Shown: in pieces, positions 225 to 29,509 of the stretch
How the letters are laid out: each line of letters opens with the position of its first letter
How positions within the stretch are numbered: the stretch's first letter is position 1
Assembly (NCBI GenBank): GCA_008632985.1
Contig: QPGO01000239.1
Span: forward strand, 62,001-91,509
Length of the DNA stretch: 29,509 nt
Source of the DNA: Psammoneis japonica
Taxonomy: Eukaryota
Reading direction: 5' to 3'
Translations under genes and position numbers: made by a program
The notes under the pieces: generated by a model
Told to the model about the DNA's origin: nothing
Databases searched by the model: none
Seen by the model: the letters and a program-made list of their open reading frames with translations, nothing else

Positions 225-354
225 AGTCGCGTGCTTTGCCAACTTCAAGGGCCTTGTACTTGAAATTTACCGCGAAACTCTAAATAGGAGGAAGATGGAT
301 GTCAATTTTTTTGCAACACGAGACTGGCAAGGCTCCGAGATTCTCGCTCCGATT

Positions 355-1041: not shown

Positions 1042-2888
1042 ATGAGTACTACTAGTAGTCAATCAGGACGTTCGAAAAAATCATCTCGGTATATTGCTGG
1101 GAATCCCGAGGAACGGCTTGCCGCGTTGGAAAAGGATTATGCGCGTCTCAAGGACCAATTTCTCGAAGAGAAAGGAGCGAAACGCAAGCTCTACTCGTCT
1201 CTTGTAAAGTTAGCCAGTCAGATGAAACGGATGCAACGTGATCAGGGTCCTCTTGTAGAGGCGGCAGATTATGCAAACCAAACGTGGTATGAGGGTGGCA
1301 TGTGGCGTGCTCCGCAAATTTTGCCGGGCGTATCCAAAGCAAAGTCCAAAAGCGAGGCTAGCCATCCGATTCGTCAACCCATTTCTCTTTCTGAATTATT
1401 CTTTGACCTAATTATCGTCATGGCGTTTACTCGGGTCGGTACATCCGTGTCGAACCGGCTCACCATTGATGGACCCGTTCTTGCGTATTTTGCAATTTTC
1501 TGGACCATTTGGAGCAAGGAGGCGTCGTATGGCACAAGGTTTGATACTACCGACTTGTCGGCACAGGTTTCAACGCTGCTCACGTGCTTTGCCGTCTTGT
1601 TTGGGTCTCTTTCGACAACCGAAGATTTTCAATCGGAGGACTCGACTCGCATGATGGCTGTTGCTGGCTTTGTGGCTGTCTTGCATTTATTGCTTCATAT
1701 TCGTGTGGCTCATTGGTATCTTGATTCTCCCAAGGGGTCGGTGGAGCATCATGTACGAAGTTATGCCGTTTACAATATCGTTATGAACTCGTTGGAGGCA
1801 GTAACGTGGGGTATTGGTATCTTTTTCGTGGGTCAAGAATCAAAAGTCCGTTGGGTCATTTTTCTTGTAGGAATTATCCTGTCTCTTCGAGTGCCTCGAG
1901 CTTTTCTTGCCAATGACTTTCATGGTACGTTTGAAAAGTTGCTGTTGTGTATTCTACGAAACTCCACGGATCTGACCTTGACGATTCTTCTATAGGCGCT
2001 TGTTCCAAGAGAGCTGTGCTTTACATTCTCTTGCTCGGCTTCTTGCTGCAAAGCATCGTCTTGGAGGCTTCGCCCTTTTTCGAATACGAATCGCCATCGT
2101 TGGAGCAGTATGCTTTCTTGGGATCATCATGTGTCTTGCTTTTCTGCATCAAGCTCTTGTATGTGGAGGATTCCAACACGCTCAATGTAGACCATGCGCT
2201 CTTGATCAATCGCTGGGCCGGTTTTTTCTTTAATCTGGGACAGTTCAGTCTGTTGCTGGCAACGACGATTTTGGGTTCGGGTTTGGATCTTTTGACGCAC
2301 AGTTACTTGGCCGCGACTGCCGCCTTGCCCAACAATGCCAAGAATCTCACGTGCGGTGGATTCTCGGCCGCGATTATTTCGATTGCCTTTATCAAGAGCA
2401 TGCATCTTCGCAGAGTCCCTCGTGATAAGAAGCAGAGACGCATGTTTTTGACGGCGTACTTTGTGCAGACCTTTGTTCTTTTGGTGGTTGCCTTTACAAC
2501 ATTTCGAATGTGCCTTACGGACAAAGAATCCGGCATGCTCTCCTTGCTCATGGTGAATGAGATCGAAATGCTCTTTGTTTTGTCGGGATTTGCAATTTGC
2601 TTGGTTGTAGCGCAATGGCTCGACGAAGCGGTGGAGCTCAGCCTATTTGACACGGGTGAAGATTCCAGGCAGTACATGGTTCATCCGTTTGGGTTTTGGT
2701 GGTGCCTCAAGCCAGAGGTTCCCTTGGAAGAAGCCGATCAGGCTGTTGAAAACATGAGGAGTACAATACCTTCTCAACGGCGACTCTCGCAGTTCTCTCC
2801 CTTGTTGGGAAGTAGTGTTGCAAATCTCAAGATTTCTCAAATGGACTTGAACTATGATGCGACAGCTGATGATTTGGAATCCGGATAG
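1042..2888 (+). CDS. Multi-pass membrane protein of the low temperature requirement A (LtrA) family with an N-terminal coiled coil; exons 1042-1924 and 1996-2888
   Basis: LtrA signature ELFFDLIIVMAF, then YGTRFDTTD and many hydrophobic segments. ORFs 1018..1995 and 1947..2888 join in frame via a 71-nt GT..AG intron at 1925-1995 (..NDFH G ACSKR..). First ATG at 1042, TAG at 2886-2888. Confidence 0.8.
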
Positions 2889-3119
2889 CGCCAACATGGT
2901 GCTGTATGAGGAATATCCGTCTTCTTTTGTTGGGATTTATGGAAGTTTGCTTGAAGCGCCCGCTTATCTAAGAATTACGGTGAGGCTCAGGATGAATACG
3001 ACGAGTTTTGTGATATATTATTTTGGATTTACTAAATGAAAGTAGAGTCAGAACCCTACTCGAGGAAGTATCTAATATGCACTCTGAGATTGGTCATGTA
3101 GCAATTGAAGAGACAAGAA

Positions 3120-4696
3120 CTATTGCGCCACAGCATGACCCTTGTTTTGGTGCTTGTGATGCACGTCGGCCGCATGGACCTTCTTGTGAGCCACCTTGTG
3201 CTGATCTGGTTTCTCCTCGCGCACGATACTCTTGACGACGCCGACAGCAACCGTCTTGCGCATGTCACGGACTGCGAAACGGCCGAGTGGAGGAAGCTCC
3301 GCAAATGATTCCACGCAAAGTGGCTTGGTGGGCTTGAGCTGCGCGATCGCCGCATCTCCCGTCTTGATGAATTTAGGATTTTCCTCCAAAACCTTGCCGG
3401 AGCGACGATCCATCTTGGACTTGATAGTCTCAAATCGGCATGCGACGTGGGAGGTATGGCAGTCAAGAACAGGACAGTAGCCAGGAAAGATCTTGCCAGG
3501 ATGATTCATGATGATGACTTGGGCGTCAAATTCTTTCACACCCGAAGCAGGGTCTTTTTCGGAATCGCAAGCCACCATACCGCGGTGCAAGTCCTTGACG
3601 GAGACATTCTTACAGTTGAATCCAATGTTATCCCCGGGCTCAGCATGATCTAGAGCAGTATGATGCATCTCGATAGACTTGACTTCGGATACGATGTTCG
3701 ACGGAGCAAACAACAGCTTCATTCCAGGCCTCATAATGCCCGTTTCGACTCGTCCAACCGGAACCGTTCCAATGCCACCAATCTTGTAAACATCCTGAAG
3801 AGGCACACGAAGCGGCTTGTCAGTGGGACGCTTGGGTGGGTGTACATTGTCAAGTGCCTCTAGCAAGGTCATTCCCTTATGCCAAGGCATGTTACTGGAC
3901 CTCTCAATCATGTTGTCCCCCATCCAGCCACTCACTGGAATGAAAGGAATCTTGTTTGGTTTGTATCCAACGTTCTTGAGGAAATGAGACACCTCTTGAG
4001 TGATTTCGTCAAAGCGCTCCTTCGAATAATCCACAGCATCCATCTTGTTAACACCAACAATCATCTGCTTGACTCCGAGCGTGTGAGCAAGCAAAGCGTG
4101 CTCACGAGTTTGTCCCTCCTTTGAGATTCCAGCTTCAAAGTGACCAGGGGCGGCATCAATTACTAAGAGAGCCACATCTGCCTGGGACGTGCCTGTGATC
4201 ATGTTCTGTGTCAAAAAGAAGCGATGCGATGAGTACATCAGGCTGGGAACGCAGCAGTAGATATGGAATCCGGAACGAAACGAATCGCCAGGAGGTGGCC
4301 GTGACTTAAACGTACCTTGATAAAGCTGTTATGTACAAAAAACAAAAGATGGGGGTGAGCTTCTATCGGAGAATCAAAGAACAGCTAGCGGATATGGCGG
4401 ACTTACTCGCGATGACCTGGAGCATCAATCACAGTCACCATAAACTTGGGCGTCTCAAACTTCCAAAGAGCGACATCAATGGTGATTCCACGTTCGCGTT
4501 CCGCTTTTAAGTTGTCGAGCACCCACGCGTACTTGAATGATGCCTTGCCCAACTCGGCGGCCTCCTTTTCAAACTTTTCAATTGTACGCTTATCAACGCC
4601 CCCTAACTTGTAAATCAAGTGTCCCGTGGTTGTGGACTTCCCACAATCGACATGGCCTATCACCACAAGATCAATGTGAGTCTTTTCCTTTCCCAT
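3120..4696 (-). CDS. EEF1A: Translation elongation factor 1-alpha, 461 aa; exons 4696-4407, 4325-4316 (10-nt micro-exon), 4205-3120
   Basis: MGKEKTH start, [24 protein letters not shown], and [15 protein letters not shown] introns at 4406-4326 and 4315-4206 restore the invariant APGHRDFIKNMITG. Confidence 0.96.
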
Positions 4697-5131
4697 TGCT
4701 TCTCTGTATCTTTTCTGTTTATTGTGCTATGCAGGAGATGAGAACTCCACACGGTACACGGTGACGCGATAGAGCGATGAGAACCCCCGTGTCAAGGTGA
4801 GTCATGGCTTCGTTGCGCTCATCCAATCATCTTGCTTGATATGAAAACAATTCAGAATCACCAGCAGCGTCTCATAAGCTTCATGGTTGACTACTAAGAT
4901 CATAAAACAGCATCTGCACACCACTGTTGCAAGTGCAAGAGGAAAATACCGGTACCAAATCGCATCATTGTCTATGGTGTGTGTTGCTTTGTTGTGGTTG
5001 GCGCCGGAATCTGAACCGCCACCAATGTCGCTCTCGGGACTCAGTGAGTCGTGTCGCGGTTGCGAGTCCCGCGAAGCCATAGTCTGCCGTAGCTGGTGGC
5101 TCTCTCTCTGTCCTGAGATTTTGGATTATGA

Positions 5132-5237
5132 GAAGTATAAAAGGGGAGGCCGCCGAAGGCGGCCCTGAAGTATAAAGTGAAAAGAAGAAAAGGGAGAAAA
5201 GGAAAAGAAAAGAAGAAAAGGGAGAAAAGGAGAAGAG
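5132..5237 (+). repeat. GC hairpin flanked by GAAGTATAAA direct repeats, followed by a polypurine tract with a tandem duplication
   Basis: GAAGTATAAA at 5132-5141 and 5167-5176; hairpin at 5148-5164. Purines only over 5179-5237, with GAAAAGAAGAAAAGGGAGAAAAGGA at 5179-5203 and 5207-5231. Confidence 0.85.
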
Positions 5238-5240
5238 TTT

Positions 5241-8200
5241 CTACATTGTCAATTTGTGGCCGTCAGGCTTTCCTGCAAAGTGTTCTGGCAACGCTTTGTG
5301 GTGCTCTGGTTTTGTGTTGTAGAGTTGAGCTCCTATGGCTTTTAGCCATGGGGCAGCATTGGCATAGGAAAGGCCCGAAATCATGTCTTTGGTGAGCACT
5401 CGTGCCAGTCGAGGTCTCTTTGCCCCGGCATCTCCTTGGTGCAACCGGGCTCTACGAATTTTCCTGCCACGTTCTTTCAGCAGCCGTTTGACGTGTGAAA
5501 CACAAATCTTGCCACCAAGGCCCACTAAAGATCCAGTGCCTCGCATCATGTTGGCGTGTTGAAGGTTCCATGCACTAGAAACTTTGCTTGAGAAATCCTC
5601 ATCGCTCAAGTTGTCACCAAACACTTTCTGCAATTCCGCCACCACACTCCAGAGCTGTGTTGTTTGCCAATCAGACAGACTTTGCGACTCTAAAAGGCAC
5701 GCATTTTGGAATGTCGGCGTGTCCACCTTTCCCAACTTTCGATTCCAAACTTGCTGCCCACAACAAAAATCTCTGCAGACGCCAGGGGATGAGGAGCTGA
5801 GGAAACCATGGCGCCAGCGGCAGGAGCAGCAGTGGGGGCGACGCCGGCCATCAAAGTCGGCATGTTGAAAGTGCCGGCAGCAGCAGCTCGTTCGGCATTG
5901 ACAACAGCACCGTGGGTGGCGACACTGGCTGCAGCAACATTGGCCAGGGCGCCATTCGCAGCTTCCTCAATGCTTTCAGTCGGCGCCTCTTCATTTGATG
6001 ATGGAGAGGTCGAGCTCCCCATGCCTGCACTCATGAGCAACAGCTCTTCTTCAACCTTTGCCCATTCCTTGTATTTACCATGGTCTGTGCCGATTGGCTC
6101 ATCACAATCCCCGAGCTCTGGAGGGAAGTCGATTCCATGGCACATCGACAGATTGGAGTGCCGAGCCAGGAGTGCCTCATGCAAGTGCCATTCAAGAGTA
6201 CGAGGGTCAGCAATGTTCAAGAGTTTCGCAAGCTTCTTGTCCTTGTCAAGGTTGAACCTTGTCACTCAAAGCCACAGCTTTTTGTTGGCAAGGCCAGAAG
6301 ACAATCGACCAACATCCCGAACAAGACGGTTCGCTTGTTTGTTGAATGCCTCTCCCTGCGATGTTGAACGAATTCTCACCAAGTCTGAATGCTCATCGTC
6401 GGGATCTGTCTTAAAGCTCATTTGGTCTGGTGGCAGTGGATCTTGACAGCAACCTTTGCGAATGTGCTGAAGCACATTGTCAACCTCTGCCTTTGTTCCC
6501 CGTCGCTTCCCTTTCACCGGCTTCAGAGTGCACATCAAGCATCCATTTCCTTTGAATGCTTCTTCAGCTCCAAGCTTTTCCTCTGCCTTCTCAATGTCAT
6601 TGCAGCATTCTTCAATTTCCCTCGCCATTGTGTCTTTGTCTGGCACATGGTTTAACGTCTTGTCCTTGCACTTCTGCTTTTTCAGCATGACCGGCACTCC
6701 CAATTCTCTTGAGCACGAAACCTCCTTGGGTTCTTTTTTGAAGAGCTCAAAGGTGTGGTTGCAGCTGGCTGTGTCAAACTTGAGACTCTTAGATGCAAAT
6801 GCCGTAGTGAAGGTCCTGTGAAGCTCATGATCCGGGCCACGTGTCGACTCGTGTGCTTTTTTTTGCCCGTGCATGTTGTCTTTCAAGGGCGCCTCCTCCG
6901 CACCCGGCCTGCACTGCGCAAACCAATGGGCTTTACGGTCCTCACAACCACCACAGCAGGTGTCGGAGTGTGCAAATTCCACTCCATCCACGTGTGTCTG
7001 CCCAAGCCGTTCACAACGTTTTCGGAGAAAATGGCCAAGCTTCTGGCACACATCGTCGCTCTCCGATTTCGTGAAAGCCCAATTCATTGCATGCCCACAC
7101 ATTCCAAAAAGAATTGCTGAGGTGTTGATGTCTTCCTCTGAATCGGGGTCATTCACAGTCTTTTTTCCACATCAAACGTCGCGTCCCACTTGATGCATTT
7201 GCCCGGCGACCAACTGAATAAATCCCGTTTCAGATGTGGAAACACCGCATCAAAGCAACGGTCGAATGTTGCCTTCAGTTTCTTTTCGTCCGGTGGCACA
7301 AAGATTTTGTTGCATCGAGCTGCTTTGAAATCAGGCCATTGTGCTTGTCTGCATCTTCCTCCTCGAGAAAATCCATGTGCGCCTTGACAGCTTTTGTTCC
7401 ATTGCATTCAAATGTTTCTCGAAAATCTCGGGCCATGTCCGCAAACACCGTGTCATCCTTCAACAGTTGGTTGCACAGTTCTTTTGTAACAAACACTTCT
7501 CCATCTTTGCCATCTGCTGTTTCTGTCTCAATGAATTCTGAACACCTTTCCCGGAGCTTCCTTGGATGCTGCGACCACGTGTCAGGTTCACACATGGCAA
7601 AGTCATGGGAGCTGGTGAGATCTGTGCCATCACCCACCGCCTTCTTGGGATTTCCAGCACAGGTGACGTTGCTGCAGGTTCCAATGGCAGACAAGATGGG
7701 GATGCGGGTCTTGCATCCAGCAATGGTGCAAGTTGAATCCTTCTTGTAGCCGGTTCTGTCATCATGCCGGACGCTCTTGTTGCCACCACACCATGGACAG
7801 GGTGTCTTGACGCCCACAAGTTTGCGACCATTTTCATCAATGTGCTCACAACGACATCTTTCATCCTTGATGAGAATGTCTCTGTCAAAAACATCAGGAA
7901 ACACACAAAGCAAATGAGTCCCTGGTGGGACTTCAAATTCGCTTGCGGCCTTCTTCATTCCCACCAGACTCCACTTGGAAGATTGGGCGTGGGGACCAGA
8001 AATGGTGAGTTGAGTAAGACCTGTCTGCTTGTGCTTCTTAGCTTGCACCTCTGGTTTTGAAACGTGACGAATGAAACCCTGGGGAAAGAACGTGTGGATG
8101 TGCTTTTCCAGAGTCGTCCCATCATGCAGCTGCTTTCGGTGAAGCAACGCCTGGCACCCACGGAGCCCTGGCTTCTTTAAATGAGCCATGCCATTGTCAT

Positions 8201-8291
8201 CCAAAGAAGGAAACCAGTCAGACCTGTGCATTCGATGAATGCATCGGTCAATTCCTGAAAGAGAACCTGTCTCGTTGGGAGGTTCGGCCAT
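5241..8291 (-). pseudogene. Frameshifted putative RNase H-fold (DDE) transposase with an N-terminal Cys cluster, resembling KDZ-like/DUF6729-type proteins
   Basis: ORF pieces 7275..8291, 7153..7407, 6266..7156, 5690..6265 and 5241..5735 tile into ~1000 codons, with three frameshifts and an in-frame TGA at 6266-6268 (KLWL*VTRFN, likely CGA->TGA). Motifs in order: CPWC..C..C, IKWDATFD, (Y>H)SDTCC, LKDNMH (DxxH), RSTSQGEAFNK. The family call is from remembered motif similarity only. Confidence 0.62.
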
Positions 8292-8404
8292 GGTGAAACG
8301 ACGAATGTGTCAACAGTGCTGCCGATGCTCTCACGTTGATGTTGTTGTTGCTCCGTCTCAGCAAAAACTAGCGTGTCTTTCCATGTGTCAAACATGCGGT
8401 GTCG

Positions 8405-8607
8405 CTGCGTCGGAGATTGCAGCGATTTTGTCAAATCTGCGTCGGATGATGCTGGCTTTTCTACGTCGGAAGTTCTTCCGTTGGCAAGTCTTTTCTGCTG
8501 AGGCTACGACAAATTGTGCATGTAAAATGCAACACAAAAGTGACGCACGTCGGATGGGTGCAAAATTTGTGTGGGCCAAATCCTTTTCTACGTCGGATCC
8601 GACGTAG
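8405..8607. repeat. Subterminal array of a 9-10 bp motif (TA/TG/CA)CGTCGGA ending in a perfect 20-bp palindrome
   Basis: CTGCGTCGGA 8405-8414 and 8437-8446, CTACGTCGGA 8461-8470, GCACGTCGGA 8545-8554, CTACGTCGGATCCGACGTAG 8588-8607. Confidence 0.9.
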
Positions 8608-8989
8608 GTCCTGGCATGTGTTTTATGCTTCTGACTTGAATTTTTCCATGCACTGCTGGCTGGGGTGTTCCTAGAGAGTGAACTTCCCGGCTGCGCTCCA
8701 CCATGCCAGAAAGAATGGATTTGACATTGTGCATGCAGTCGAGCTTCCCTGATGGTCTCAAAGGGTGGTAATTGATGCGGAACTGAGTGACAGTGCGAAG
8801 GGTGCACACGTGGAATTGTCTTGGAATTGAGCGCCACCAACCTGTGACAGAATGAATGTCGAAGCTCGACCGCAGACAAGGCTCAATCTTTTGAATGCCA
8901 GAAAGTGAGGGCAGTTCAAATTCAAATGGTCTGAGCTGCCACCAGCAGCTGCCATTTTGTTCCATCACAAACTCTTGTGCAATGAACAT

Positions 8990-10310
8990 GATTCTGTTCG
9001 AAGCCTAGAAACTCAGCTTTTCCAGGGCATCTCAAAAACAACAATGGGGATGAATCCAATCCTTTCCTTTGCATTGAAAGATGAAATCACATCAGAGAAG
9101 AGGACAAATTGTGGGCCATCATTGACCAAAGCAGAAAGTGAAAAGTGCTGCCCACAAGGTTCAGCGACAAAGTCACCGTGTCGCCGTCGCCAAAAGTTGG
9201 ATGGAAAGAGTCACAAGGACCACCATCTTTCTGGACTGCACAGGCAGCGCCATTGTTTCCATGCACCCAGCCAACATTGGGGTGCACAGGATGTTCGGAA
9301 GAAGCCACACCAACCAAAGTGATGCCACACATGGCTGCAATCTTGACTTGCCATTTGTGCATTCCATCTTGAAGGGCATTGACGCTGAGCATTTCGGCAA
9401 CATGGGAATCAGCAGTGCAGCTAAAGATTTTGCTGCTGGAGCTTTTCCATGCACAGTTTTTTGGGCACCCCAGGGAGCTGAGAGAGATGTTGTGTTTTGC
9501 TTGTGCGCGGACAAAGCCTGGACCCTGCAGGCTTGCATGAGTTGTTGTGTGGCAACGAGACCAGACGTGGCAACAATTGCACCCAAGTCACTGGGCTCAA
9601 TGTTCTCCAAGTTAAGAAATTTTGAGAGTTCTGCAGCTTTCCGCTTCCCACCCGCATGGCCATCATTGTCATCTGCACTCTGAAGTTCGATTTGCGACCA
9701 ATCATTCAGCAACTTAAAGAGCAAAGTGTCATCGATCCCAAGCCTCCCATGATGGACAATTCTTTCAAGGGCACTGGCGTTCATCACACACAGCAGTCCT
9801 TCATTGAAAACAGAGTCAAGATTCATGATGATCTGTTGGAGCACAAAATCCAGACTGCTTGAGTTGCGGAGGGAAAGGAATGATTCCGAGGCAGCCAGGA
9901 ACTCCAAAGCAACTGCATGATTTTCTGACATGACTTTTCACAAATGTTCCATGATTTTTGCACAGATCAGTGGTGATTCAAGGCAAATGGCAGCTTCCAC
10001 AAGTTCCCCGGCCTTCTCAGTGAAGTCGGTTTGACTTGCTTCTGCAAACACAACAAGGATGTCAGCCGTGTTGGTGCAGGCATGCGACACCAAAGACTCC
10101 AGCATGTCTCCGGAATGCGGAAGATTCACTTCCTTGCTCTTGGACTTGGCAAACTCTCCAGCATGTCATCAAACATGGGCAAACACAACACCATGAATGC
10201 AGTGAATGGCTGGAGCGCATGCCCCGTCAGATCCAACAAGTGTCAAATCATCACATTTGTTGCCATTCCTTTGTTGATCAAGATTTTGCTGTTGGCAGGC
10301 ATGATGATTA
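8990..10310 (-). pseudogene. Decayed BTB/POZ-BACK protein gene with a C-terminal SPRY/concanavalin-like domain
   Basis: Pieces read DLTLVGSDGACAPAIHCI (BTB start), LESLVSHACTN (expected ..EYxYTD), LFKLLNDW, LNLENIEPSDLGAIVATSGLV..LMQACRVQAL (BACK end), then HKWQVKI..GVA..FGDGDTVTLSLNL. Interrupted by stops and frameshifts; ends approximate. Confidence 0.72.
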
Positions 10311-10779
10311 AAGGGAGTGCAAGCAGTGTCGAAAGTCAACTCTGTGCTCCACAATGCACCACTGGAGCAGAGGTCTAGCTTGTTGCAGATTGTTCTTGTG
10401 AAGCAGTGACAACAATGACAAAAAGCTGAGTTTGGAAAAAAGATCCAACACTGCACCAAGACAGATGACCATGCCTTGATGAAACCAACCAACAAACGCG
10501 TGCACAACGCACATGATGCCTGCTGGCATGGGGCAATCGGGACTTTGGAAATTTGCACTCCCTGCCTGCAACTGCAATGGCTGGCTCTGGTGGCTGGATC
10601 TGGTTAAACTGTGGCCACATCTGCGGTTTGTTGAGTCTTCAGTTGTTGTCTGGGAAGAATGAATTGTGAGACCATCTCAGTTGTCAAAAACACGCCATTT
10701 CAGTGACCGGCATTTTTTCTCCGTTCCCCACCTGAAAGCAAAAAGCTGTGACACTCCACATTGTGACACAGCCTCTGCC

Positions 10780-11560
10780 ATTTTGCAGCCTGCTAGAAAT
10801 GCCTTGGAGCTTGCTGCTGGCAAGTTCCCATCTTTCAAGCCCACATCAACAATTGGAAACAAAGTCCTTGCCAGGACCGCTTCAAAAGCATGTGTGGTCA
10901 TCACACCAACCCATCATGTGGAGAGGGCTTGACCCCAGTTGCCTGGACCACCTTGGACTGCACAAGTGAAAAAGACCAAGACATCACCAGGATCTGATGC
11001 AGACCAATTCAACTTGTCTTTGCCATCTGTGGACATTTCTGTTTTGTCAGCAAAGTGTTGTGGATTGTGGTTGCTTCCAGCCACAAACTGGAGATCTTCC
11101 TTGGGGCTGACAGAATTGTGTGGAACAAAGACAGAGGCAACTTGTGCTCCCTTGAGTCTTCCAACATCTGCCATTCTGATGCCATGACATTGTGGTGTTG
11201 ACACTCCCTCCTCTTTGACAAAGAGAGCTGGTTGCACAAATGCCTCATGGTTGGCGAGCCCATGACATTTCCAGCAATGGCAACAACAGGGATCGTGCAA
11301 AGCAAATGCAGCAAACAGGGGGGGGTGACAACCAGAGGTTTGCAACAAAAATGCTGGGAATGGTTGGCCTTTTCAGGTGTTTGACACAAGGCCCCGCCTC
11401 ATCCTCTCTTGGGCATCCACTGCACAGCAAGTCCAGCCACTTCTTTGAAAATGAACTGGGAACTTTGGTCATGCCTGTGTGGCATTGTGCTCATGAACCA
11501 TGGCTTGTGTCACCTGCCTTGTTGCCGTCTCTGCTTCTTTTTGCAGTCAGTGCCTTGGTC
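10780..11560 (-). pseudogene. Decayed phytanoyl-CoA dioxygenase (PhyH-like 2OG-Fe(II) oxygenase) gene
   Basis: Pieces read KVPSSFSKKWLDLL, FVKEEGVSTP, SVFVPHNSVSPKEDLQFVAGSN, and DPGDVLVFFTCAVQGGPGNWGQALST* (expected PGDvlvF...vHgapgN..RAlstRw.gdd). Frameshifted; ends approximate. Confidence 0.62.
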
Positions 11561-11879
11561 ACAACTCTTTGCATGGAAGGTTTGTTGGGGTTGCATTTTT
11601 GTGAAAAAAAAAGTGGCCGCACTGCACCACAAGGTGCAGCATTTGTCAACTGCATGGAATCCCATGCAAAGCATGCCCATCAGTTCTCTCACTGCCACAT
11701 TGCAGTGCACTTCCCAACACTTAAAGTGAAGGACAAGCTGCACCCATCCGTGCTGCACCATGCTCCACTGACAACCAGCTCTGCCTGCTCTGATCTTGGG
11801 GGGCAAACTCACATTTGCAGTTTGCTTTTTCACCCCAACTTGTCCATTGGCACAGTGTCCTGACAATCTGCAAATCCAG

Positions 11880-13400
11880 GGACTGCTGCTGGATGAGCCA
11901 TTTCATGCTCAACATGATTGTTCTTCAGTCTCCAGCAACAAAGCGCAAGCTGCACCTTCGTGTGCAACCCTTGGGGTGCCTCTCAAGTGTGCTCTGGGTG
12001 TGAAAGAATGTCCAAGTGAAAGTCCTCTAAAAGTTCTCTTGACTTGGGGTGCATTTGATCCTCACCCCAATCATTGAGAGCAAAGCTTTTCCCTTTCATT
12101 TGAGTCCTTCTCAATCAAAATGTTGTGTTTGGCAATGTGTCTCCATGTCAAAGCTTTGCTTCATTGGTGCTCAATGCAGTGGTTTTCCTCCAAAGTTCTT
12201 GAAACATTTTGTTGAATTTTGTCAAGTTTCCATGTCACAGGGCTTTCAACATGAATCAACAGGCAGCAACAACTCTCTGAGACAGTGGAGGCAAGATCTG
12301 GGTGGGTGTGAAGGACATCTTTTTGTCATTTAGAGGCTCCATGCTTTCCCTGAATTGAGCACCACAACAGAAGAAAATTTTGATTGGAAGGCATCATGCT
12401 GAGAAAGTTTGGTCCTTCTAGATCTCCTCCTTCTGCTCACAAAGATGTGGATCCCCATGACTTCCCAAGCTCTGTTCTTTCCAGAACATCAGAAAACAGG
12501 AGCTGCCACCCCCCACTGCACTCTAAATCACAATGCTTTCAGCAGAAGACATTGGAGCCAAAGTCTTGTGGTGCAATGAGTCACACTGGAGAAGCACTCC
12601 AGATGATGCGTGTGGTCTTCTTCTCCCACAGCATTTCTTTGATGAGGAACTGGTTGAGAAGCTTGCCAACAATGGCAACATCATTGTCCAGAGATGCATC
12701 TCTTCAAAACAAGTTGGACAAGGCATTCTGCTGAAGCATCTGGGAAGAGACAGCTTCAAAAAACAGGTGCAGCACCGTGCATCAGATGCCAGCCTCCCAA
12801 GTCAATTTTGTTTCCCCACTGCTTCAGATGACAGCTGAAAGGACCACAAATGATGAACCTCTGCTGCCAGCTGCTGAAACTTTGCAAGAACAAACAGAGG
12901 AGGAGCATCAAGCATGTGCCATGCTGCATCAAAGCTTTGCCAACACAGAAATTTTCATTGTTCTTGGTCTCGCCCATCACAGCATCTCTGTCATCATCAT
13001 CAGTGCTTGCAATGATGCACACACTGGGTCTTGAGGTTGCTTGAACAAAGAGCTTGGCTTGGCTTGGAAGCCTGCAGCCTGCACTGCCTGAGCAGCTTCT
13101 TTGCCAACTGGGTTTGCTTTTGAAAAATGGTTTCTCATGTGCAAATCCAGAGCAGTTTTCATGTCCTTCTTTTGGCACAAAAACCACCCAGGTTGGCAAT
13201 GTGCTCAAGCTTGACAAAAAAATGTTTTTTTTTGGCAGCTTCCTGGATTCTCTGGAGGAGTGGCAATGTTTTGCAGAACAGACATTGCGCTGAACACCCT
13301 GTGCTGCTGCAAACCACTCTTTGTTGTTCCTTTCAGTGAATCTGCAGCTGCCTTCACAAAATCCTTGTTGGCTTCACTGCCACCACACCGACGCTGCTGT
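11880..13400. other. TpA- and CpG-depleted decayed sequence, probably formerly coding, unidentified
   Basis: Protein-like fragments on the + strand (12533..12838, 12777..13034) but no family recognised. No TpA between 12526 and 13547. Confidence 0.4.
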
Positions 13401-13891
13401 GCTGGCTTGTGCTCACCAGTGTCACATGAGTGACCACCCTGTCTGAATTCTCAGTGGCTGCACATCATTCCTGCTTGGATTGGGATCTCTGTCAGGCCAT
13501 GAGCAACGCTTGTGCTCAACGCAAGCGGGGCCCCTCGTTTTCCATTTTACAAGCTTTTTGTGTTGTCTGTTTGGCATTTCACGTGGCATGAGCGAGGGTC
13601 GACAATGACCCGCGATCATGCAATGTGGCAACAAGCACTGGACAGAGTGAGTCTTCAAAGAGCTCTGGAAAAGTGGCAGTGTCTCACCTCCATTTATTGA
13701 AAGGGACTCAACATCGCTGCAGAGTGAGCAATGTCTGTTGAGAAGAAGGTCCCTGATCGACCACCACCGAACTGAGAGTGTCGCTCTTCGCTCGGTTGGT
13801 CGGGCTCCGCTCCGGCTCCTGAGGAGGAGTGGTGTCGCGTTTTTGAGTCCCGCAAGCATGGCAAACGGCAACGTCCGCCACGACTTCGTAG

Positions 13892-13939
13892 GCCCCACTG
13901 TGCCGGTGGGGCATTACTCGAGGTCTCTACTCTAGCTAG
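13892..13939 (+). mobile_element. Possible Helitron-like 3' terminus (GC hairpin followed by CTAG) at the right edge of block 1
   Basis: Hairpin GCCCCACTG-TGC-CGGTGGGGC at 13892-13912 (single mismatch explicable as CpG->TpG). CTCG at 13917-13920, CTAG at 13932-13935 and 13936-13939. No Rep/helicase coding sequence seen. Confidence 0.35.
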
Positions 13940-13947
13940 AGTAGAGA
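13924..13947. repeat. Perfect 24-bp palindrome TCTCTACTCTAGCTAGAGTAGAGA inside a TAG/CTA-rich patch
   Basis: Read directly: TCTCTACTCTAG followed by its reverse complement CTAGAGTAGAGA. Confidence 0.9.
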
Positions 13948-14255
13948 GTAGAGGCTACTTCAGCTAGTAGTAGATTTCATTCTTTATGCAGTAGCATGTT
14001 TGCAGAATGATCGGTGTGTAGGCAGTTCATCCGGGCAACAAGCACGGTACTATTCTTCTGCTATCTAGCTAGGGCTACGATACATACTGTAGAGGCTTTC
14101 TCTCTGGAGAACACGCAACGCTGGCAGGAAGCTGTGGCGCGGATAACTTTGGAGTTTCAGCATCAGGGTCTTCTGTCCTTGTTCGTTACATCTATGAAAC
14201 GAAGCTTAGAAAACTAAACTTTGCGGTTTCAGAAATTCATAAAGAACGTATTATT

Positions 14256-14857
14256 TTAACAGCTAAGAGGACGTGTCCGACCAATTGTTTGATGACACGT
14301 CGGACACGAGTGAACACTGGTATAGCAACACGGGAGCACTAACGGTAGCCAAAAGAGCGGCCAACAAATGAATATCATGAGCACGGTGGCCAAAACAGTC
14401 ATCCAGTCTATTCGAAGCCGCACACGCGTTGATATGCTTTGTTGGCAATTTGGACATGTGATTCGTTCTGACCTTCTGAAAACAAAAGCAACGAGTGAGA
14501 AAAGAATGAGATCGTCACATGCTTCCGCCACTTTGAAAAGAACTGGCGCAAATCAGTTTTCTTACCGACCCAAGTTACCATAGACGCGTCCGGGTGCCAC
14601 TGGTATAACAGTGTGTTGATCAGCATACGCAAATGTGGTCGTGGATGACATTGGGGGGCCAGATGATGGCGGACTACTCGCCGGTATCGGCGTCGATGGG
14701 TATGGATACGCATGAGTAGACGAGTTGACTCCATGACTTGATGTGGAACCGTAGTTTGTATCGAATTCCTGAGGAGGTGCCGAAGGAATTGCGTCAACCT
14801 CCATGTCTGGCTCCATGGGAACCGCGTCCACCAATGGGATCGGAGCGTCAACACCAC
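14256..14857 (-). CDS. LITAF-like zinc-ribbon membrane-associated protein with a Pro-rich N-terminus; intron 14565-14476; start uncertain
   Basis: CPNC...hydrophobic hairpin (ICWPLFWLPLVLPCC)...HSCPTC is the LITAF pattern. A 90-nt GTAAG..CAG intron joins ORFs 14562..14867 and 14256..14531 in frame. Possible acceptor at 14858, or an internal Met start near 14815. Confidence 0.85.
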
Positions 14858-15624
14858 CTGCAAGCAACCATTTAAGAATAAATCGTGAGCAAGAATCAGC
14901 ATCAACATCGACACATGCTATAAGCGTTCAAGGCTAAATATATATTATGCGTGAGTCAGAAGTCAGAACGCTTGTTCTCTCTAGAGAGAGTGGCTCTCCT
15001 CTCTAGAAGACAGGTTTTCGTTATTGACACCCCGCAACGAGACCCACAGAATCATGAGTGGATGTATTTTCCAACAAAGTACTGTATTTTGTTGGATACA
15101 ATGCCTGTTGAAGTTTTTTCCATCACATACCTTGTGTCATGTTTGACGTGAAAGTTTTATCGTACTTTTAAGAACGGTGCTTGTCTGGTTTTGCTAAACA
15201 AGCTGATGCGTTGCAGGAGATGATGAGCATCTTCCAACTTGACGACGACTACTCTTGACTCGATATTTGGATTGAGGACTGACGAGAACGGCAAAAAACA
15301 CGACTCAAAATTCATTTAGTCGAACTAATCCGTTTTGGCGCGAAAAAATGATGAGTCAGGGACAGCCACGTGAACGCTTGTGCATGCGAGACTCCGTGGC
15401 AGCTGACGACTTTGGCGTCAAGACACGCAGACACCAACACAACACATTTTGGCGGGATGAGACAAACGACGCGCAGTCAAATAAAGAACACGTCATTCAC
15501 GGTATCTCAGTGTGAGAGCAAAGTGCTCCTAGGGTATTGTTGTGATTGCTGACTGCTTCGCTGACAACGGCGATCGAAACACACGCACTATTTGCATTTT
15601 ACTGACCCATATCACTTTTTCGTC

Positions 15625-16427
15625 ATGTTGAGATTCACTGCCGTTGTCCTCGCCGTAGTTGTGGCTGCATGCGCCGTTGCTCCTATCCAAGGCTTTGCTC
15701 CTTCGGGCACAACGTGCAAGCCTGTTGCCTTTACTAGAAACGCTATCAGACTACACGCCGAAGAGGGTGGTGATGCCGTGTTTGTTCCTCCTGAAGAAAC
15801 CCAAGAAGAAAATGATGATACCTTTGAAAAGGTGGAATCACTTGGTCGAGGATCAGCCAAGGTAAGAATCCTTTCTGTCCCCTCTTTTTCGATCTTGAAG
15901 TGATGTTTGCCGTATCTTACTCTCTGCATTTTCTCACTACGCACTTGCAGAAAAAGCGTGGTCGTCGTAAGAGTGGAAGTGCCGAGGGATCGAAGGTACG
16001 AAAATCGGCAGCATCCCTTGCACCGGAAGAAGTTTTCTATGAAGGTCCGCCAGCGATTACCGAGACGATTGCTCCCACGGCTTCCATTGTGACTGTGATT
16101 GGCATTATCCCCGCCGCGGCAGCTTGGGCCCGTCAGGCTTGGGTTCGTTATAAGATTACAACCCGTCGTATCCGCGTCACATCCGGAATCGGCGGCAAGG
16201 ACATGGCCGAAATTGTCTACCCGGACATTGTAGAGATCCGAACCGCCAAGCGTCTCTTTGGTGACGGCGACCTTGTGGCATTTCTGCGTGACGGAGCCAA
16301 GTTCGAGATGCGCAACATACCGAATTTTGAAGAAGCCATGGAATTCATTCTCAAACAAGTGGATCCCCAAGTTGCAGCCACTTACAGGGAAAAGGGCGAT
16401 GTCACCAACCCGGAACCTAAGGAATAG
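15625..16427 (+). CDS. Plastid-targeted bacterial PH-domain (bPH_2/YdbS-like) membrane protein; exons 15625-15861 and 15951-16427
   Basis: Signal peptide plus IQG-FAP (ASAFAP-type) and a transit-like segment. Phase-0 GTAAG..CAG intron at 15862-15950. EEVFYEGPP..WVRYKITTRRIRVTSG..GDLV..LRDG.KFE resembles the cyanobacterial-type PH-domain family. Confidence 0.78.
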
Positions 16428-16712
16428 AGTCCGCAGCTGATTTCAACACACAATACACATTTGCAACTGCACGTAATTTGAAAGCTATTTAGTAAACAAA
16501 ATCTTTTTTATGCTTCTGTTACTTGCTGTTTGTATGATTCGCTAACCCTCGCTTTTCCTCAATTTTGATATCTAGTTAGCTTGGTTGGCAATACGAATAC
16601 ATGCTACACTGCTGTTCCATGGCATTGTAATTGCATCCAACGTTGCTCGTTCGATCCTTATCACAGGCCTCCCCTTTGCAAGGCTGAAGAGGGAAAGGAA
16701 CAAAATAGAGAA

Positions 16713-17881: not shown

Positions 17882-18379
17882 GGTGCTCTAGTAGCACAAT
17901 CTCTGCGTGTTATTTTGTGTGTTGGGGGTTGGAGGTTGGAGTGTGCGGAGAACGGGACACGAGGTTTTTTGTGGAGCCAGGCAGGGTTGCACGAGTTTTT
18001 GTACGAAATCTTAGTTTTCACGAGCTCTCCGAATTCTTACATTGCATGATGAGAGATTGGGGGATGTCTTCGGAAGTGAGACTGTCGAAGAAAGTTACGT
18101 AGAATTTGTAATAAAACATTCTGTCAATCAGTGCGATTGGGTATTTGGGATCTCTGGACAGATCCTACGTGTTTTCTTGTGCGTACAAAATATACTGGGA
18201 AAACCCCAAACGCACTGGCGATCAGACCGCCTTCGACGATCTCACTTCCAAAGACGCCCCCCAAGATGGCAAATCACGGTCCCGGCGGCGGAACATGCAC
18301 GCCCTGCCTTCGATTTACCTCCTCTCTCCCCGCCCCCACCTCGTCCAGCCCTTCTACTAAACGCCCTATGTCCTGCGCT

Positions 18380-19620
18380 TGCTGCCCATTTTGTTCTTCC
18401 ATCACTGCAGCTCTCTCCGTGCCTCCTTCTGCTGTCCCCTTCTGCTCTGCATGGGCTCCTTAACTCTGCACTCAGTTTAAAGTGGTGCTGGCCTGGGGCT
18501 GGCAGCGCACGCCAGCACAACTTTTGGTTTTGTGCACTTGCATCGCCCCACAAACCAACAGCACAAAATTTGCACAGTGCCGCAGGAAGCAGGAACTCCC
18601 TGTGCACACGAAAGCTTGCAACACCCACAGGAGCCCTCCCCAGGTTTGTGTTTGTGGCACAACAAGAGGCGCTGCTGTGAAGAGCTGGGCAGTTCGCACC
18701 AGGTGCAACAGGTGTGTTTGACACAACTTTGCAAGAGCTGGCTGCACCTTGCAGAAGCAGCTGTTGAAGTCCTCAGTTGAAGCAAGTTGGGGAACTTTGG
18801 AGACCAGGAGATTTGATTTGCAGCTCAGAGCCTGCAATGACACAAACTGAAGAGGTGCTTCTTTTCCATCATGCCAGAGCATTGAGCATCTGCACATTTT
18901 CTGCTTGCACTGTGAACATGTCTCATGCATTCTCACATGGTCCAATGACCATGCATTGTGCATGTGAGATGGAACAACAATGACAGGCACAAAAAAAAGG
19001 TTTGGTGGTGGCAGCAGCAGGGAGCGGCTGTGCCTCTGTCTTCAGCTGGCACCAGCATCAGCCCAGGATGAGGACCCATGCTGCTGCCAGCTGAGCTGCT
19101 GGTGCACACCAAGCAAATGTGTCCCACTGGGGGTTTCACCCAACTCTCAGTCACTGGCTCACCCCGGCTTTGTTTTGATCTCTCAGGATGAGCAGCTCTC
19201 CCATTTTTGCAGCACAGCTTTGCCTCTCCCTCTCCATGATGCAAGGGTGTGACATGCAAGAGATGCCTGTTCTTCCCTCTTGCTCAGTCACAGAAAATGG
19301 GTTGTTATCAGCAGAACATGCAGAGTGGGAGAGAGTGCTGCAACAGAGGCCAGTGCAGCATGTGTGGTGCTGGAAACACAGCAAGACTGCGCAACAGATC
19401 TCAGGGCAATGGCCATGTGCGCAAAAATGCAGCAGCACCAGCGTGCACCATGGAAGCACAGGGGAACTCTGGCGGTGGCTCAGTGACTTGCTGGGCACAT
19501 GAGGGGTGAGGAGCATCTGCGCGCATGGCAGAATGTGCGCGCCATTGACACACCATCAACACAAGCATGACAACACAAGCAGAGGCACAGTGCACACACA
19601 TGCACACATGACAACATGCA
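18380..19620. other. TpA-depleted decayed repeat-like sequence upstream of the Gypsy remnant, unidentified
   Basis: Only one TpA (19306) between 18480 and 19620. The CA/TG-rich stretch at 19550-19620 may be a formerly TA-rich LTR-like segment. No protein family recognised. Confidence 0.45.
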
Positions 19621-19883
19621 ACAAGTGGGGTCAGAAAAACTTCAACACAATTGACTGCATGTGATCAACAAATGCAAGCCAATGGGGAATTTTCATGATT
19701 CCTCATTTGCATGACTCCACTTTTCCAGAGATGAAACTGGCCTCACAATTTTCACCAAAAATGACTCTTGACAACTTGCTGTTTTCATCACTGGCAAATG
19801 GTGCACAAGGCACAGCAATGTTGCTCCTGCGCAAGTGTGTGACAGTCACTGCTTCAGTCAAACCACTGATTGGCAAACCAACC

Positions 19884-22145
19884 ATGAAAAAGTGGATTGA
19901 ACTGATGATTGATTCTGCTCAAATGTCTGGAGAGAAGGTGCTGTTCAAAGGAAAGCAATGGCAGACTTGTGAGCTCAGGAGTTTGCCAGCTGATGCTGAC
20001 AGTCCAATTGTGAGCTGAGTGTTCCATGCTTTTGTGTGTGCATGTGCAGAGCACCTGCCATTCCTGATGTGAAATGCTGAGCATGTCATGGCAGAGCAAA
20101 ACATCAAAACAGGTCTGGAAAATTCTCAGTTGTGTGCTGGCGGTGGTTGCTCAAAGGCAATGCCTTGACTGCACTCAATGATGAAGCTGAGGGCACACAA
20201 CAGAGACCAATGCATTGGTGCAAACATGTGTTGCAAAGGTTGTTGCTGAAGCATTTTCCATTCAGGGAATCACTGCCACAAAAGCATCATCTGTGATGTT
20301 TTGTGCTCAAATTGGTTGGCCAACATGAAGACTTGTGATCATCATGCCGCAAGAGCTGTTGAGCTGCTCAATGGCCGCATTTTGCTCTCTCTTTTGTGTT
20401 GCTGCCAGATTTTGAGCTGGCTGACTTGTTTGAGAAGGGGCGCCAAACTCATGGCAGAAACAGACAATTTCACAAGGATTGTGACCCACTGGCACATGCT
20501 GTTGCCCAATTTGTCTCTTTCTGCAGGCATGTGGAGCAAGCTGAAAACTTGCCAAGGCAAGCAGGGAAATCATGCAAAGGTTTGTGAGGGAAGCAAGGCA
20601 ACAGAGCTGACCCAGCCCTTGATCGTTGGTTGCGAGTCATGAGAAAAAAGCTGCCAAATGCTGCATGCTCTGTGGTGATGACCAGATGCATGATGCAGAA
20701 GAATGTCAAAGTTTGAAACGTCCCATGAAATGTCTCAAGATGTCCAGGGCAGACAGTCACACTCAGACGAACTCCTTGTGGTTGCCAAAAATGCTTGCGA
20801 AGATCACTCAAAGACATCGATGGTTGCGCTGCAGTGCACACACAATGCTGGACTAAAGGTTCAAGGTTGATGCAGGAAGGACATTTTGTCAAACCCAGTT
20901 GGAGCATTTGGGCCACTCAGTTGTTTGGGTGGGGGATGCTCCAACACCTTCCAAAGTCAAAGCTGTCAAAATGCTTGCACAACTTGCAGCCAGGATTTTT
21001 TCTGAGTGGAGTGGATGCACATTGAAGACAAAACATTTGAAGCCATTGAGATGGCAGTGTCACATGATGTGTTGTTGTGCCCTGGGATTTTAACAAACCA
21101 TTTGAGGTTCATGCCCCTGATGCCTCCAAGTGTCAACTCAGAGCAGCAACATTGCATGCCAATGAACCCACTGCCTTTTATGCTGGCAGCAAGTGCTCAA
21201 AAGTGCACAACACTTTAAACTGTGCAGCGATGGAGTGAGAGTTGCTTGCTGTTGAGGAAATGTCAAACAAAGAATTTTGAGTGTGCTCTTCCTTGTCCAA
21301 CATGTGATGGCATGTGCTGGTCACAAAAACCTCACATGCGAGCTGTCCAACACCAAATGCACCATGCATTGGCAGTTGACATGTGAGGAATGTTGTGACA
21401 TGTCAAGGGATGTCACACTCTGACACCTGGCTGCACACACCCTCAGTTGTCCTGTGTGCTCATCCAAGTTTGGAGCCAGGGTGCAGCCCCACACAGTCTC
21501 AGAGATGCCAGACATGCATCCTCTGCACACAGCACCCACTTTGGAGAGCACAGCACTGCCAGCAAGCTTTGAGAAAATGCAGCAAGAACAGCAGAAGGAG
21601 AAGCATCTGTTGCTGAGAGGAAGCATGGGAAATTGCCGATGCATCAATTTACATTCATGGCTTGAGCACATGTGTGGCGAGGTGGCATTCGTGGCAATTC
21701 CCCAGGAAACCATGCTTCCCGTGGAAAATCACGGTGAAAGGTGACAACCCCGGGGAATTTTGGGGAACCCATGTGGCAAAACCAAACTGAGGACCAAAAA
21801 CCACAGTGGGTGTGCTGCCAGTGGCAAGAAGCTCCAAAATGTTCACACACCACAGCAGAGTTGCCACACGCTGTCAATGTGCACACTTGCAGTTGCACAA
21901 AATGTCACAAACTGGTCCTCACACGCAACTCTGTGCCACACACAACAACCCAGCTGAGTGGAAACGCTGTTTTCACCCAAGATGCCTCCTTTGCCGCCTT
22001 CCAACTCTGCCTCCACAAAATTGAGGGAACATCATGGTGCTTCCTTCCTTTGCAAAGAAGAGTGCGATCCACCAGTGCTCCAGCACACCCAGGGCGCACC
22101 GTTCCACTGCCCACGAGCGATCTGGTGCACCCACTCATTGGGGAT
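19884..22145 (+). mobile_element. Decayed, internally deleted Ty3/Gypsy LTR retrotransposon (gag plus RT/RNase H remnants)
   Basis: Gag-like TCELRSLPADADSP/CELSVPCF, LKGNALTA, NMKT.D..AAR.VEL, KCCMLCG..HDAEEC. RT 3' part FKVDAGRTFCQTQLEHLGH..PTPSKVKAV (~20860-20965). RNase H DFNKPFEVHAPDASKCQL (21086-21139). Purine run then TG near 22140-22146. Paired LTRs not found. Confidence 0.82.
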
Positions 22146-22491
22146 GTGCATCATGACAGCCAACATGCCATCTGGACAAAATTGTTGTGCCAGAGGCATA
22201 AAACATTTTGGTTGTTTTCCTCAAACAAAGGCTCTTCAGTCGAAATCATCATCAGTCGATTCATCACCTGCCATGTACAGTACATGCCGGTAAACATTCT
22301 CCAACGATGTATTTGCCTTACACTCAATCACTTACCGCTACGTGTTTCTTAGTAATGATTTTACATACGTTGACTTTCTTGTAGAAAGATAAGCATTTCA
22401 CCCGACTGAAGAATTTCGCTCGAATGAACCGAGCCACGACCCAACCATCCCGTCCCATTCTTCTCATAAAAAAATCCTTTCGTACTTACAC

Positions 22492-28519: not shown

Positions 28520-29509
28520 ACTGCTGTTTTGACTCAGTTGGTGATGAACCTCCTGCACCACACAGAATGCAAGGATGGAGGAGCATCTGAAGAGGCTCAA
28601 GAGCGAAAACCAACAGGGGCGGGGGAGCAGGGAGACCCCCCAAAAAGAACATCCAGCTCGCAGCTTTTGAGTCAACACGTCTTCATTTCCACACTGAGCT
28701 CAATGCCATGGCTTGTTTCTTCTGCTGGTGCCCCACTTTTCTGAAAGCAAAGCACAGTGAAAAGGTGTGGCATTGCACACACGCTTTGGCACAGTGCCAA
28801 CTTGGCTGGCCAAGGCAACCACCAAAAAATCCCACGCTCTCGGCTCCCCCATTGCTTTGGGCACATTGTTGAAGCACAGTCTTGCTTTGCATGAAAATGC
28901 AGCTGGATCAGGGCAACTTTTTGAATGTTTTGTCATGCAGAAAGAGCTGTCACATGTGTTTGTGGTTTCTTGCTCATGGACATTCATGGTCTTGCTCTGC
29001 ATCCACACACTGCGATGTTTGAAATTCACTCTTGAGCCAACTGCATGGCAAGGAACGTCATTCACTTTTGCATGATGACCATGCAAGAGTGTTCCACACC
29101 ACACACAGCTGGTCCAAGCATGTTCTTGCCAACTGAAAAAAAGAGACTGCCTCTGCCAGTTCTCCAACGTTTGTCATTTGCACCAAGCAGGTTCGTGCTG
29201 ATTGTTTCAGCAGTTGTGGCAATGGCTGTCATCTCACAAACCTCATCTCAATGTCAAACCCGCAGCTGCAGCTCCTCTCCAAAGCAAGAAGTCTGGGGTC
29301 AACAATGAGTGCAGCGCAAACTTGTCTGTCCATCTCTTAAATGTTGATGATCTCACAGCAGACCATCCAAAAAAGAATGAGCCAAATTTTGATTCCCACC
29401 AAAATGGTGAGTCCCATTCAAAGCGGACAACTCTTTTGCACCTTCTTTTCTTTTTCAATGAAAGCAGAAAGAAAGTCCAGGACAATGCTCGGTGGATTGT
29501 TTGCATCAC
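28520..29509. other. Third TpA- and CpG-depleted decayed block, unidentified, running off the window
   Basis: One TpA (TTAA, 29338) in ~990 nt by hand count; Cys/His-rich pseudo-ORFs in most frames. Confidence 0.7.

Follow-up and report, generated by a model that had tools for sequence, protein, structure and literature searches.

TpA-depleted domains in a contig of Psammoneis japonica: a probable footprint of TpA-confined hypermutation accompanied by CpG decay

The stretch analysed here comprises 29,509 nt of Psammoneis japonica contig QPGO01000239.1 (hereafter the window, within which all positions are numbered). In it, gene-bearing DNA is interrupted by three domains from which the dinucleotide TpA has almost disappeared, the first of them holding the relics of two unrelated genes. 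The pattern is best read, with a probability that we put at about 0.75, as the outcome of DNA-level transitions confined to TpA together with a slower decay of CpG. The domains would then be the long-term footprint of hypermutation of the type reported in the alga Bigelowiella natans (Mettrop et al., bioRxiv 10.64898/2026.01.13.699255), with adenine deamination as the most likely chemistry.

Depleted domains, gene relics and flanking genes

Composition was measured in 500-nt sliding windows and as observed/expected (o/e) dinucleotide ratios of each block, and the limits of the domains were taken from a two-state hidden Markov model (HMM) on P(A|T). Three depleted domains with sharp boundaries were obtained (Table 1). 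Their TpA o/e is 0.03-0.12 against 0.51-0.58 in the gene-bearing flanks, and the HMM places P(A|T) at 0.004-0.018 inside the domains (0.018 in domain 1) against 0.13-0.15 in the flanks. The longest run without TpA reaches 1548 nt in the window versus 189 nt in the concatenated flanks, and the Poisson probability of finding so few TpA at a flank-like density lies between 1e-15 and 3e-57 per block. An earlier note, made from the letters of this DNA, had reported TpA counts (24 in 1201-1800, 4 in 6601-7200, 0 in 10801-11400 and 13 in 9001-13500) and TpA-free runs (10796-11721, 12526-13547 and 19308-20853) that were all recovered exactly, and its block limits (5250..13920, 18.4-22.2 kb and 28.5 kb to the end) lie near those of the HMM domains.

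CpG is lost in parallel, which the earlier note had overlooked. Its o/e falls to 0.20 in 9001-13500, 0.19 in 18501-22000 and 0.28 from 28501 to the end, and is 0.68 in 5501-9000. In terms of counts, 5530-8360 has 16 TA where 95 are expected and 119 CG where 181 are expected, while domain 2 has 6 TA versus 129, 46 CG versus 233, and 904 TG plus CA versus 521. The o/e of TG and that of CA are raised equally in the depleted blocks, to 1.5-2.0, and the G+C content of these blocks (0.43-0.56) is like that of the flanks (near 0.5).

Table 1. Features of the window, TpA and CpG content of depleted and flanking blocks, and balance of dinucleotides lost and gained
Feature	Positions	Strand	TpA	CpG	TA+CG lost	TG+CA gained	Remarks
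EF-1alpha gene	3120-4328	-					just left of domain 1
Domain 1	5583..13888						limits from HMM; two unrelated gene relics, spacer and DNA without identified homology
Relic of the ~1030-aa family	5244..8303	-					full-length, intronless, frameshifted over three frames
Spacer between relics	8369..8900		o/e 0.27	o/e 0.90			ends of other copies at 8603
BTB-BACK-SPRY relic, ~450 aa	8985..10348	-					frameshift near 9470-9500; tblastn residues ~8-455
DNA without identified homology	10349..13547		0-3 per 500 nt	0-7 per 500 nt			most TpA- and CpG-depleted part of domain 1
Right edge of domain 1	13548..13888		o/e 0.11	o/e 0.89			
Domain 2	18369..22275 (core 18479-22198)						TpA- and CpG-depleted; parts matched by diverged copies
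Domain 3	28522..29509		1 vs 38 expected	15 vs 56 expected			continues past the window end
Depleted block	5501-13500		39, o/e 0.08				
Depleted block	9001-13500		13, o/e 0.04				
Depleted block	18501-22000		6, o/e 0.03				
Depleted block	28501-29509		3, o/e 0.04				
Flank	1-5250		203, o/e 0.56				
Flank	13501-18500		189, o/e 0.58				
Flank	22001-28500		204, o/e 0.51				
Balance block	5530-8360				141	137	
Balance block	8900-13547				373	365	
Balance block	18479-22198				310	383	
Balance block	28518-end				78	75	

The first relic of domain 1 belongs to a family of proteins of about 1030 aa. In tblastn with six homologues (P0001-P0006), residues 1-1027 of P0003 are covered in frames -3, -2, -1 and -3. 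Among the open reading frames (ORFs) of this relic, 6266-7171 (minus strand) found two relatives by a word-based protein search, and 7275-8309 found four full-length relatives of 919-1051 aa. No real Pfam family was detected in the homologues. Four of these, P0003-P0006, sit on contigs of 3.3-3.8 kb that are nearly all ORF and come from four different public sources. This suggests a selfish or mobile gene family of marine protists that has yet to be characterised, and contigs of one DNA sequencing run that differ by 9-16% from the relic at 5244-8303 indicate several genomic copies. The AlphaFold2 model of P0003, built from a six-row alignment, was too poor for a fold search (mean predicted local distance difference test score 43.4, predicted template modelling score 0.29), and a DDE-like reading of three motifs in the family, made by eye, found no tool support and was not retained.

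The second relic is that of a BTB-BACK-SPRY gene. Its ORF 9173-9937 (minus strand) retrieved 63 representatives by phmmer at E<=1e-3, the best at 2.8e-14, and a Pfam scan of eight homologues recovered BTB in all eight, BACK in three and SPRY, weakly, in four. Both relics carry frameshifts and stops.

For the remaining depleted DNA, a six-frame Pfam search of all three blocks gave no family at E<=0.1, neither reverse transcriptase nor integrase being seen, and none was given by 18 ORFs taken from the blocks. In domain 2, the segment 20081-21172 (plus strand, read through with X) yielded 663 candidates, none at E<=0.01; a gag-like reading of this segment, made by eye only and likewise unsupported by any tool, was dropped. 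No repeats of at least 40 bp were found within the window, and blastn with a word size of 9 returned only a 24-nt palindrome, so that the depleted blocks are not copies of each other. A perfect palindrome of 24 nt stands at 13924-13947, in TpA-rich DNA just outside the right border of domain 1. The earlier description of the depletion as confined to transposons and pseudogenes could be borne out in part, through the two gene relics of domain 1, the other depleted DNA having given no Pfam family. The domains are apparently degenerate, non-functional DNA made up of a multi-copy gene of selfish appearance, a dead BTB-BACK-SPRY gene and DNA without identified homology.

The flanks encode a canonical EF-1alpha (513 bits to human eEF1A2) and proteins of the LtrA-like, DUF6824, dynamitin, bPH_2 and mitochondrial-carrier types. 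To our knowledge, DUF6824 is restricted to diatoms and stramenopiles; no mention of it was found in the literature searched. The genic flanks are also covered by contigs of a second run, which skip GT..AG introns at 15859-15949 and 17067-17175 and are therefore probably RNA-derived, though the run is tentatively labelled DNA. None of these contigs falls on 5335-14005 or 18675-22009, a lack of cover that is not evidence of silence. Among the runs listed for the stretch there was none of RNA. The ORFs of the window are uninterrupted over 310-547 aa, and the two short introns are the only ones in the RNA-like contigs. One such contig joins 4207 to 4407 with eight other letters between them, which may represent an intron or an alternative 5' exon.

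Two dinucleotide losses and their direction

When the dinucleotide o/e of the flanks is taken as the ancestral expectation, the TpA and CpG lost from each block can be set against the TpG and CpA gained (Table 1). The gain is symmetric between strands, with TG/CA counts per block of 262/269, 493/523, 439/465 and 96/118. Across the four blocks TA stands at 0.03-0.17 of the flank level, while AA/TT is at 0.94-1.16 and AT at 0.82-0.97, and the other dinucleotides are mostly at 0.9-1.16; in the three older blocks GA/TC is lower (0.73-0.90) and GC higher (1.18-1.29). This balance is the residue of two transition processes, TA->TG/CA and CG->TG/CA. Given that AA/TT and AT are undepleted, polymerase eta acting at WA (W, A or T), an ApT-directed process and general GC-biased conversion are all argued against. 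The WA->WG errors of polymerase eta, a candidate of the earlier note, fail on this point because they predict a loss of AA as well. GC-biased gene conversion was rejected since the G+C content of the blocks is that of the flanks and TA alone is lost among the steps that contain A or T.

TTAA accounts for 13 of the 49 TpA that survive in the domains versus 15 of 600 TpA in the flanks (Fisher 8e-9), and its density is 0.99 per kb in the domains versus 0.92 in the flanks. Survival is 0-2.4% where T or C lies 3' of the A on both strands, 9-17% with an A on one side and 22% for CTAG. ATAT and ATAG are gone from the domains, and ATAC and GTAC have one survivor each. The 3' neighbour thus ranks T, C > G >> A in TpA loss, and on the simplest reading the target on each strand is T-A-N, where N is T or C in the first place, G less often and A hardly ever, and a hit on either strand is enough to lose the TpA.

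The CpG loss follows other rules. In the old blocks (8900-13547, 18479-22198 and 28522-29509) the surviving fraction is 0.63 for GCGC and 0.11-0.33 elsewhere; all contexts are affected, GCGC the least, and this loss is thus broad and not T-specific. Two pieces, 8369-8900 and 13548-13888, are poor in TpA yet normal in CpG, and in 5530-8360 TpA is far more reduced than CpG. This means that the two losses are separate processes, of which that of TpA is the faster.

The same TpA->TpG/CpA change at the DNA level could be produced without adenine deamination, through a modified base that is misread or mis-repaired (methylated adenine or modified thymine would be examples) or through TA-specific error-prone repair in heterochromatin. 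Strict dinucleotide specificity together with strand symmetry is what a mark on palindromic TA would give, and the known DNA-active ADAT2 prefers another context (PMC10354150). The repair route in its best known form, polymerase eta at WA, founders on the level of AA/TT already given. ApT, the usual site of N6-methyladenine in eukaryotes, is not depleted either, and we know of no TpA-specific DNA modification. Such routes are therefore considered unlikely, although they are the most serious competitors of adenine deamination.

The direction of change was obtained from the homologues of the two relics. For the ~1030-aa family, 492 columns were scored, each with at least three of the six homologues aligned and at least two thirds of them agreeing. 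A consensus Tyr occupies 26 of these columns, of which 2 still read Tyr in the window; 13 have become Cys (all TGY) and 7 His (all CAY), with Phe in 2 and Leu and Glu in one each. Other consensus residues are largely kept in this relic: Trp in 12 of 13 columns, Gly in 37 of 42, Cys in 10 of 12, Pro in 30 of 37, His in 15 of 19 and Phe in 18 of 25. Comparison with single homologues gives the same picture, the 24 Tyr columns of P0001 having none kept, 11 Cys and 5 His, and the 14 of P0002 one kept, 6 Cys and 3 His. In the BTB-BACK-SPRY relic, the seven consensus-Tyr columns read 3 His, 3 Cys and 1 Ala. The peptides SHACTN (10087, minus strand) and QACRVQAL (9535, minus strand), singled out earlier as places where Tyr was expected, do fall on consensus-Tyr columns of this relic. 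Of the consensus-Arg columns, 9 of 36 in the ~1030-aa family now carry His, Cys or Gln and 3 of 6 in the BTB-BACK-SPRY relic carry His, replacements that read as the codon signature of CpG decay.

These substitutions bear on the possibility that the composition was inherited or selected: the blocks would have been acquired from a donor such as a virus or some other genome, or from TpA- and CpG-avoiding elements, with no hypermutation in this genome. A low content of UpA and CpG is common among viruses and elements, and for most of the depleted DNA the searches recovered no homologue. Nonetheless, the homologues of both relics are normal in Tyr (3.1-5.3% in the ~1030-aa family) and it is in the window that Tyr gives way to Cys or His and Arg is replaced, other residues being kept, which argues that the composition was not inherited. 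Selection on function is also hard to invoke for relics with frameshifts and stops, and a protein-coding gene cannot dispense with Tyr codons. We know of no compositional bias that comes anywhere near a TpA o/e of 0.03-0.08. An inherited composition is for these reasons highly improbable, and the homologues indicate that TA->TG/CA and CG->TG/CA arose in this lineage of copies.

The central claim of the earlier note, a TA->TG/CA process that acts on both strands and in any frame, is in this way borne out by the Tyr to Cys/His replacements in two unrelated relics and by the dinucleotide balance. Its exclusion of fungal repeat-induced point mutation (RIP) and of 5-methylcytosine deamination was likewise correct, neither being able on its own to account for the loss of TpA.

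Targeting of domains or repeats

The earlier note had described the process as repeat-targeted. Copy number was judged here from the contigs of one DNA run, with matches of at least 80%. No second contig at this level was found on 8670-13338, which includes the BTB-BACK-SPRY relic. The opposite case is provided by an element at 18057-18264 that resembles a miniature inverted-repeat transposable element (MITE), spans 208 bp and ends in inverted repeats of 34 nt (85%). It is high-copy, as many contigs end at its borders and its summed depth is in the thousands versus about 61 for single-copy DNA, yet it keeps a TpA o/e of 0.60 and a CpG o/e of 1.08 though it lies about 200 nt from domain 2. A length threshold could also explain its escape. 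Domain 1 (5583-13888), in turn, runs unbroken across two unrelated relics and the DNA between them. A target without a detectable second copy, an untouched high-copy MITE and a continuous domain are together better fitted by the targeting of domains, silenced or marked as foreign, than by the targeting of duplications, and the repeat-targeted description is not supported.

Differences between the copies and the window, unpolarised, amount to 155 A>G, 181 T>C, 206 C>T, 191 G>A and 270 transversions. Among the differences listed (40 of 1004), 26 rows fall in domain 2, about half of them at CG, TG, CA or TA steps and with two adjacent CA->TG pairs. This distribution is suggestive only.

The continuity of domain 1 is also relevant to a route through RNA, in which double-stranded transcripts of mobile elements would be edited from A to I by an ADAR-like or TAD-like enzyme and the changes carried into DNA once the edited RNA was reverse-transcribed and inserted again. 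Several diverged copies do exist for parts of domains 1 and 2, and ADARs typically prefer a 5' U according to the B. natans preprint (bioRxiv 10.64898/2026.01.13.699255). This route would have to account for one domain that extends without a break over unrelated relics, a spacer and DNA without identified homology, for six frames devoid of reverse transcriptase and integrase, for strands that are hit equally and for a 3' G that is not preferred. Moreover, in B. natans the spectrum develops in situ during clonal growth, within an integrated virus that is present as a single copy (bioRxiv 10.64898/2026.01.13.699255). Editing of RNA is accordingly regarded as very unlikely.

An artefact of sequencing or assembly has the least probability of the explanations considered. 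In its favour, the comparison rests on a single DNA run that is possibly the assembly's own data. However, one short-read contig of 9527 nt covers 8403-17929, and so spans a depleted block as well as normal genes; it departs from the window at 2 positions, each of them in the genic part. The domains are sharp and the Tyr to Cys/His codon changes coherent, and we know of no chemistry or base-caller error that would turn TA and CG into TG/CA in some kilobase blocks only.

Relation to known systems and proposed mechanism

The earlier note knew of no characterised system of this kind, a statement that is out of date since TpA->TpG/CpA hypermutation has been reported in B. natans (bioRxiv 10.64898/2026.01.13.699255). 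In that preprint, 231 of 302 nuclear mutations in mutation-accumulation lines fell in two integrated viral regions, and 230 of these 231 were A->G/T->C, all 230 at TpA. The rate is ~6e-7, about 1000-fold over background, and activity was confined to some of the lines. The B. natans genome contains 124 clusters of 1-kb windows that are poor in TpA and rich in CpA and TpG, as well as 324 low-TpA coding sequences enriched in DDE and reverse transcriptase domains, and a homologue of ADAT2 is proposed as the candidate enzyme (bioRxiv 10.64898/2026.01.13.699255). Beyond this preprint and papers on fungal RIP no other report was found in the literature, and none for diatoms.

The window shares with B. 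natans A->G/T->C changes at TpA that give TpG and CpA, discrete domains beside normally evolving DNA, TpA-poor clusters rich in CpA and TpG that are mostly of unannotatable sequence, and an effect on single-copy DNA and not on repeats alone. It differs in being near saturation (TpA o/e 0.03-0.08, versus 0.45 in the region of B. natans derived from a nucleocytoplasmic large DNA virus) and in the CpG decay that accompanies the TpA loss, CpG having 0 occurrences in the preprint text. TTAA is spared and TAY (Y, C or T) preferred in the window, whereas a wider context is not described in the same text. No viral relation was found for the identifiable targets, unlike those of B. natans, and what is seen is a footprint in one assembly, without a live rate. 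The lineages probably differ as well: the EF-1alpha of the window is canonical and B. natans is reported to have a highly divergent EFL (elongation factor-like protein; PMC1891102), and the long uninterrupted ORFs of the window contrast with a B. natans figure of 8 introns per gene (PMC13746701).

Three other systems resemble the window in part. Like fungal RIP, the process resides in the genome and strikes selfish or duplicated DNA densely with one transition class in a dinucleotide context, leaving kilobase blocks of skewed content beside normal genes. Unlike RIP, which converts CpA to TpA and raises TpA, the process seen here removes TpA and enriches CpA and TpG 1.5-2.0-fold, the attacked base being A and not C, and no dependence on duplication is seen among the contigs of the one run; the gene content also suggests an organism other than a fungus. 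With hyper-editing by ADAR it has in common the A-to-G change, the 5' U/T preference and the attack on repeat or foreign sequence. However, ADAR accepts A as the 5' neighbour and favours G on the 3' side, while in the window AA is untouched and a 3' T or C is preferred; ADAR also acts on RNA, so that fixation in DNA needs a retro-copy, and we know of no ADAR outside animals. CpG decay driven by 5-methylcytosine matches the older blocks in their CpG o/e of 0.19-0.28, their gain of TpG and CpA and their replacement of Arg by His, Cys or Gln, but it covers the CpG half only and cannot remove TpA.

In the mechanism that is proposed, a transition process at 5'-TA-3' would have driven silent domains almost to saturation. 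An A read as G would turn TA into TG if it lies on the top strand and into CA if it lies on the bottom strand. The process would act on entire chromosomal domains where they stand, with equal effect on the two strands and blind to frame, sparing TA that is followed by A on both strands (TTAA) and working best with a 3' T or C. A second and slower process would convert CpG to TpG/CpA in the older parts, the simplest cause being that 5-methylcytosine is deaminated where DNA is silenced. For the chemistry of the first process, adenine in DNA may be deaminated to inosine, which is read as G, by a deaminase of the TadA/ADAT type or another one, directed to foreign or silenced chromatin. The deaminated adenine as the lesion, the deaminase as the agent and 5-methylcytosine as the cause of the CpG decay are what we infer from the footprint.

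Several points weigh against this proposal. The deamination step is proposed from the sequence of one window, and this window is one haplotype at one time point, which records a footprint and not an ongoing rate. The DNA run may be the assembly's own data, in which case it is a weak check against sequencing artefacts. The ranking of contexts pools 49 survivors over blocks of different age and assumes a flank-like ancestry. The one DNA-active ADAT2 for which contexts have been published favours, in Escherichia coli, GAA when it acts on A and TCG when it acts on C (PMC10354150), which differs from T-A-(not A), so that a different deaminase or a route without deaminase is possible. No viral or foreign origin emerged for the targets: the ~1030-aa family had 130 pattern matches in IMG/VR and 195 in JGI metagenome contigs, with 0 confirmed in either, and the BTB-BACK-SPRY architecture is host-like.

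The window probably extends TpA-specific, localised hypermutation to a second lineage. Localised A-to-G hypermutation of resident DNA was first reported in 2026, in one alga, and relative to B. natans the near-saturation, the immunity of TTAA, the co-decay of CpG, the target without a detectable second copy and the escape of the MITE are new. The equality of strands, the unaffected AA and AT, the immunity of TTAA, the preference for TAY, the independence from CpG decay, the action on a sequence for which no second copy was detected and the MITE escape all constrain the mechanism; these constraints narrow the search for the enzyme and argue for targeting by chromatin state over sequence duplication. 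There is also a practical consequence, given that depleted blocks are invisible to domain searches (0 Pfam families in six frames) and are easily taken for orphan genes or unique DNA.

A second lineage in which the footprint is saturated would establish the process as widespread and as old enough to have erased every Tyr codon of a gene. Tentatively, and at somewhat less than even odds in our judgement, the window may record a TpA-specific adenine-editing defence acting on DNA in a second lineage, distant from the chlorarachniophyte B. natans and by its genes probably a stramenopile or diatom-like alga, a defence that saturates silenced domains whatever their copy number or origin, recognises T-A-(not A) and leaves TTAA immune, as the faster partner of cytosine methylation in the permanent inactivation of silenced DNA. 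If true, eukaryotes would widely possess an analogue of RIP whose chemistry runs the other way.

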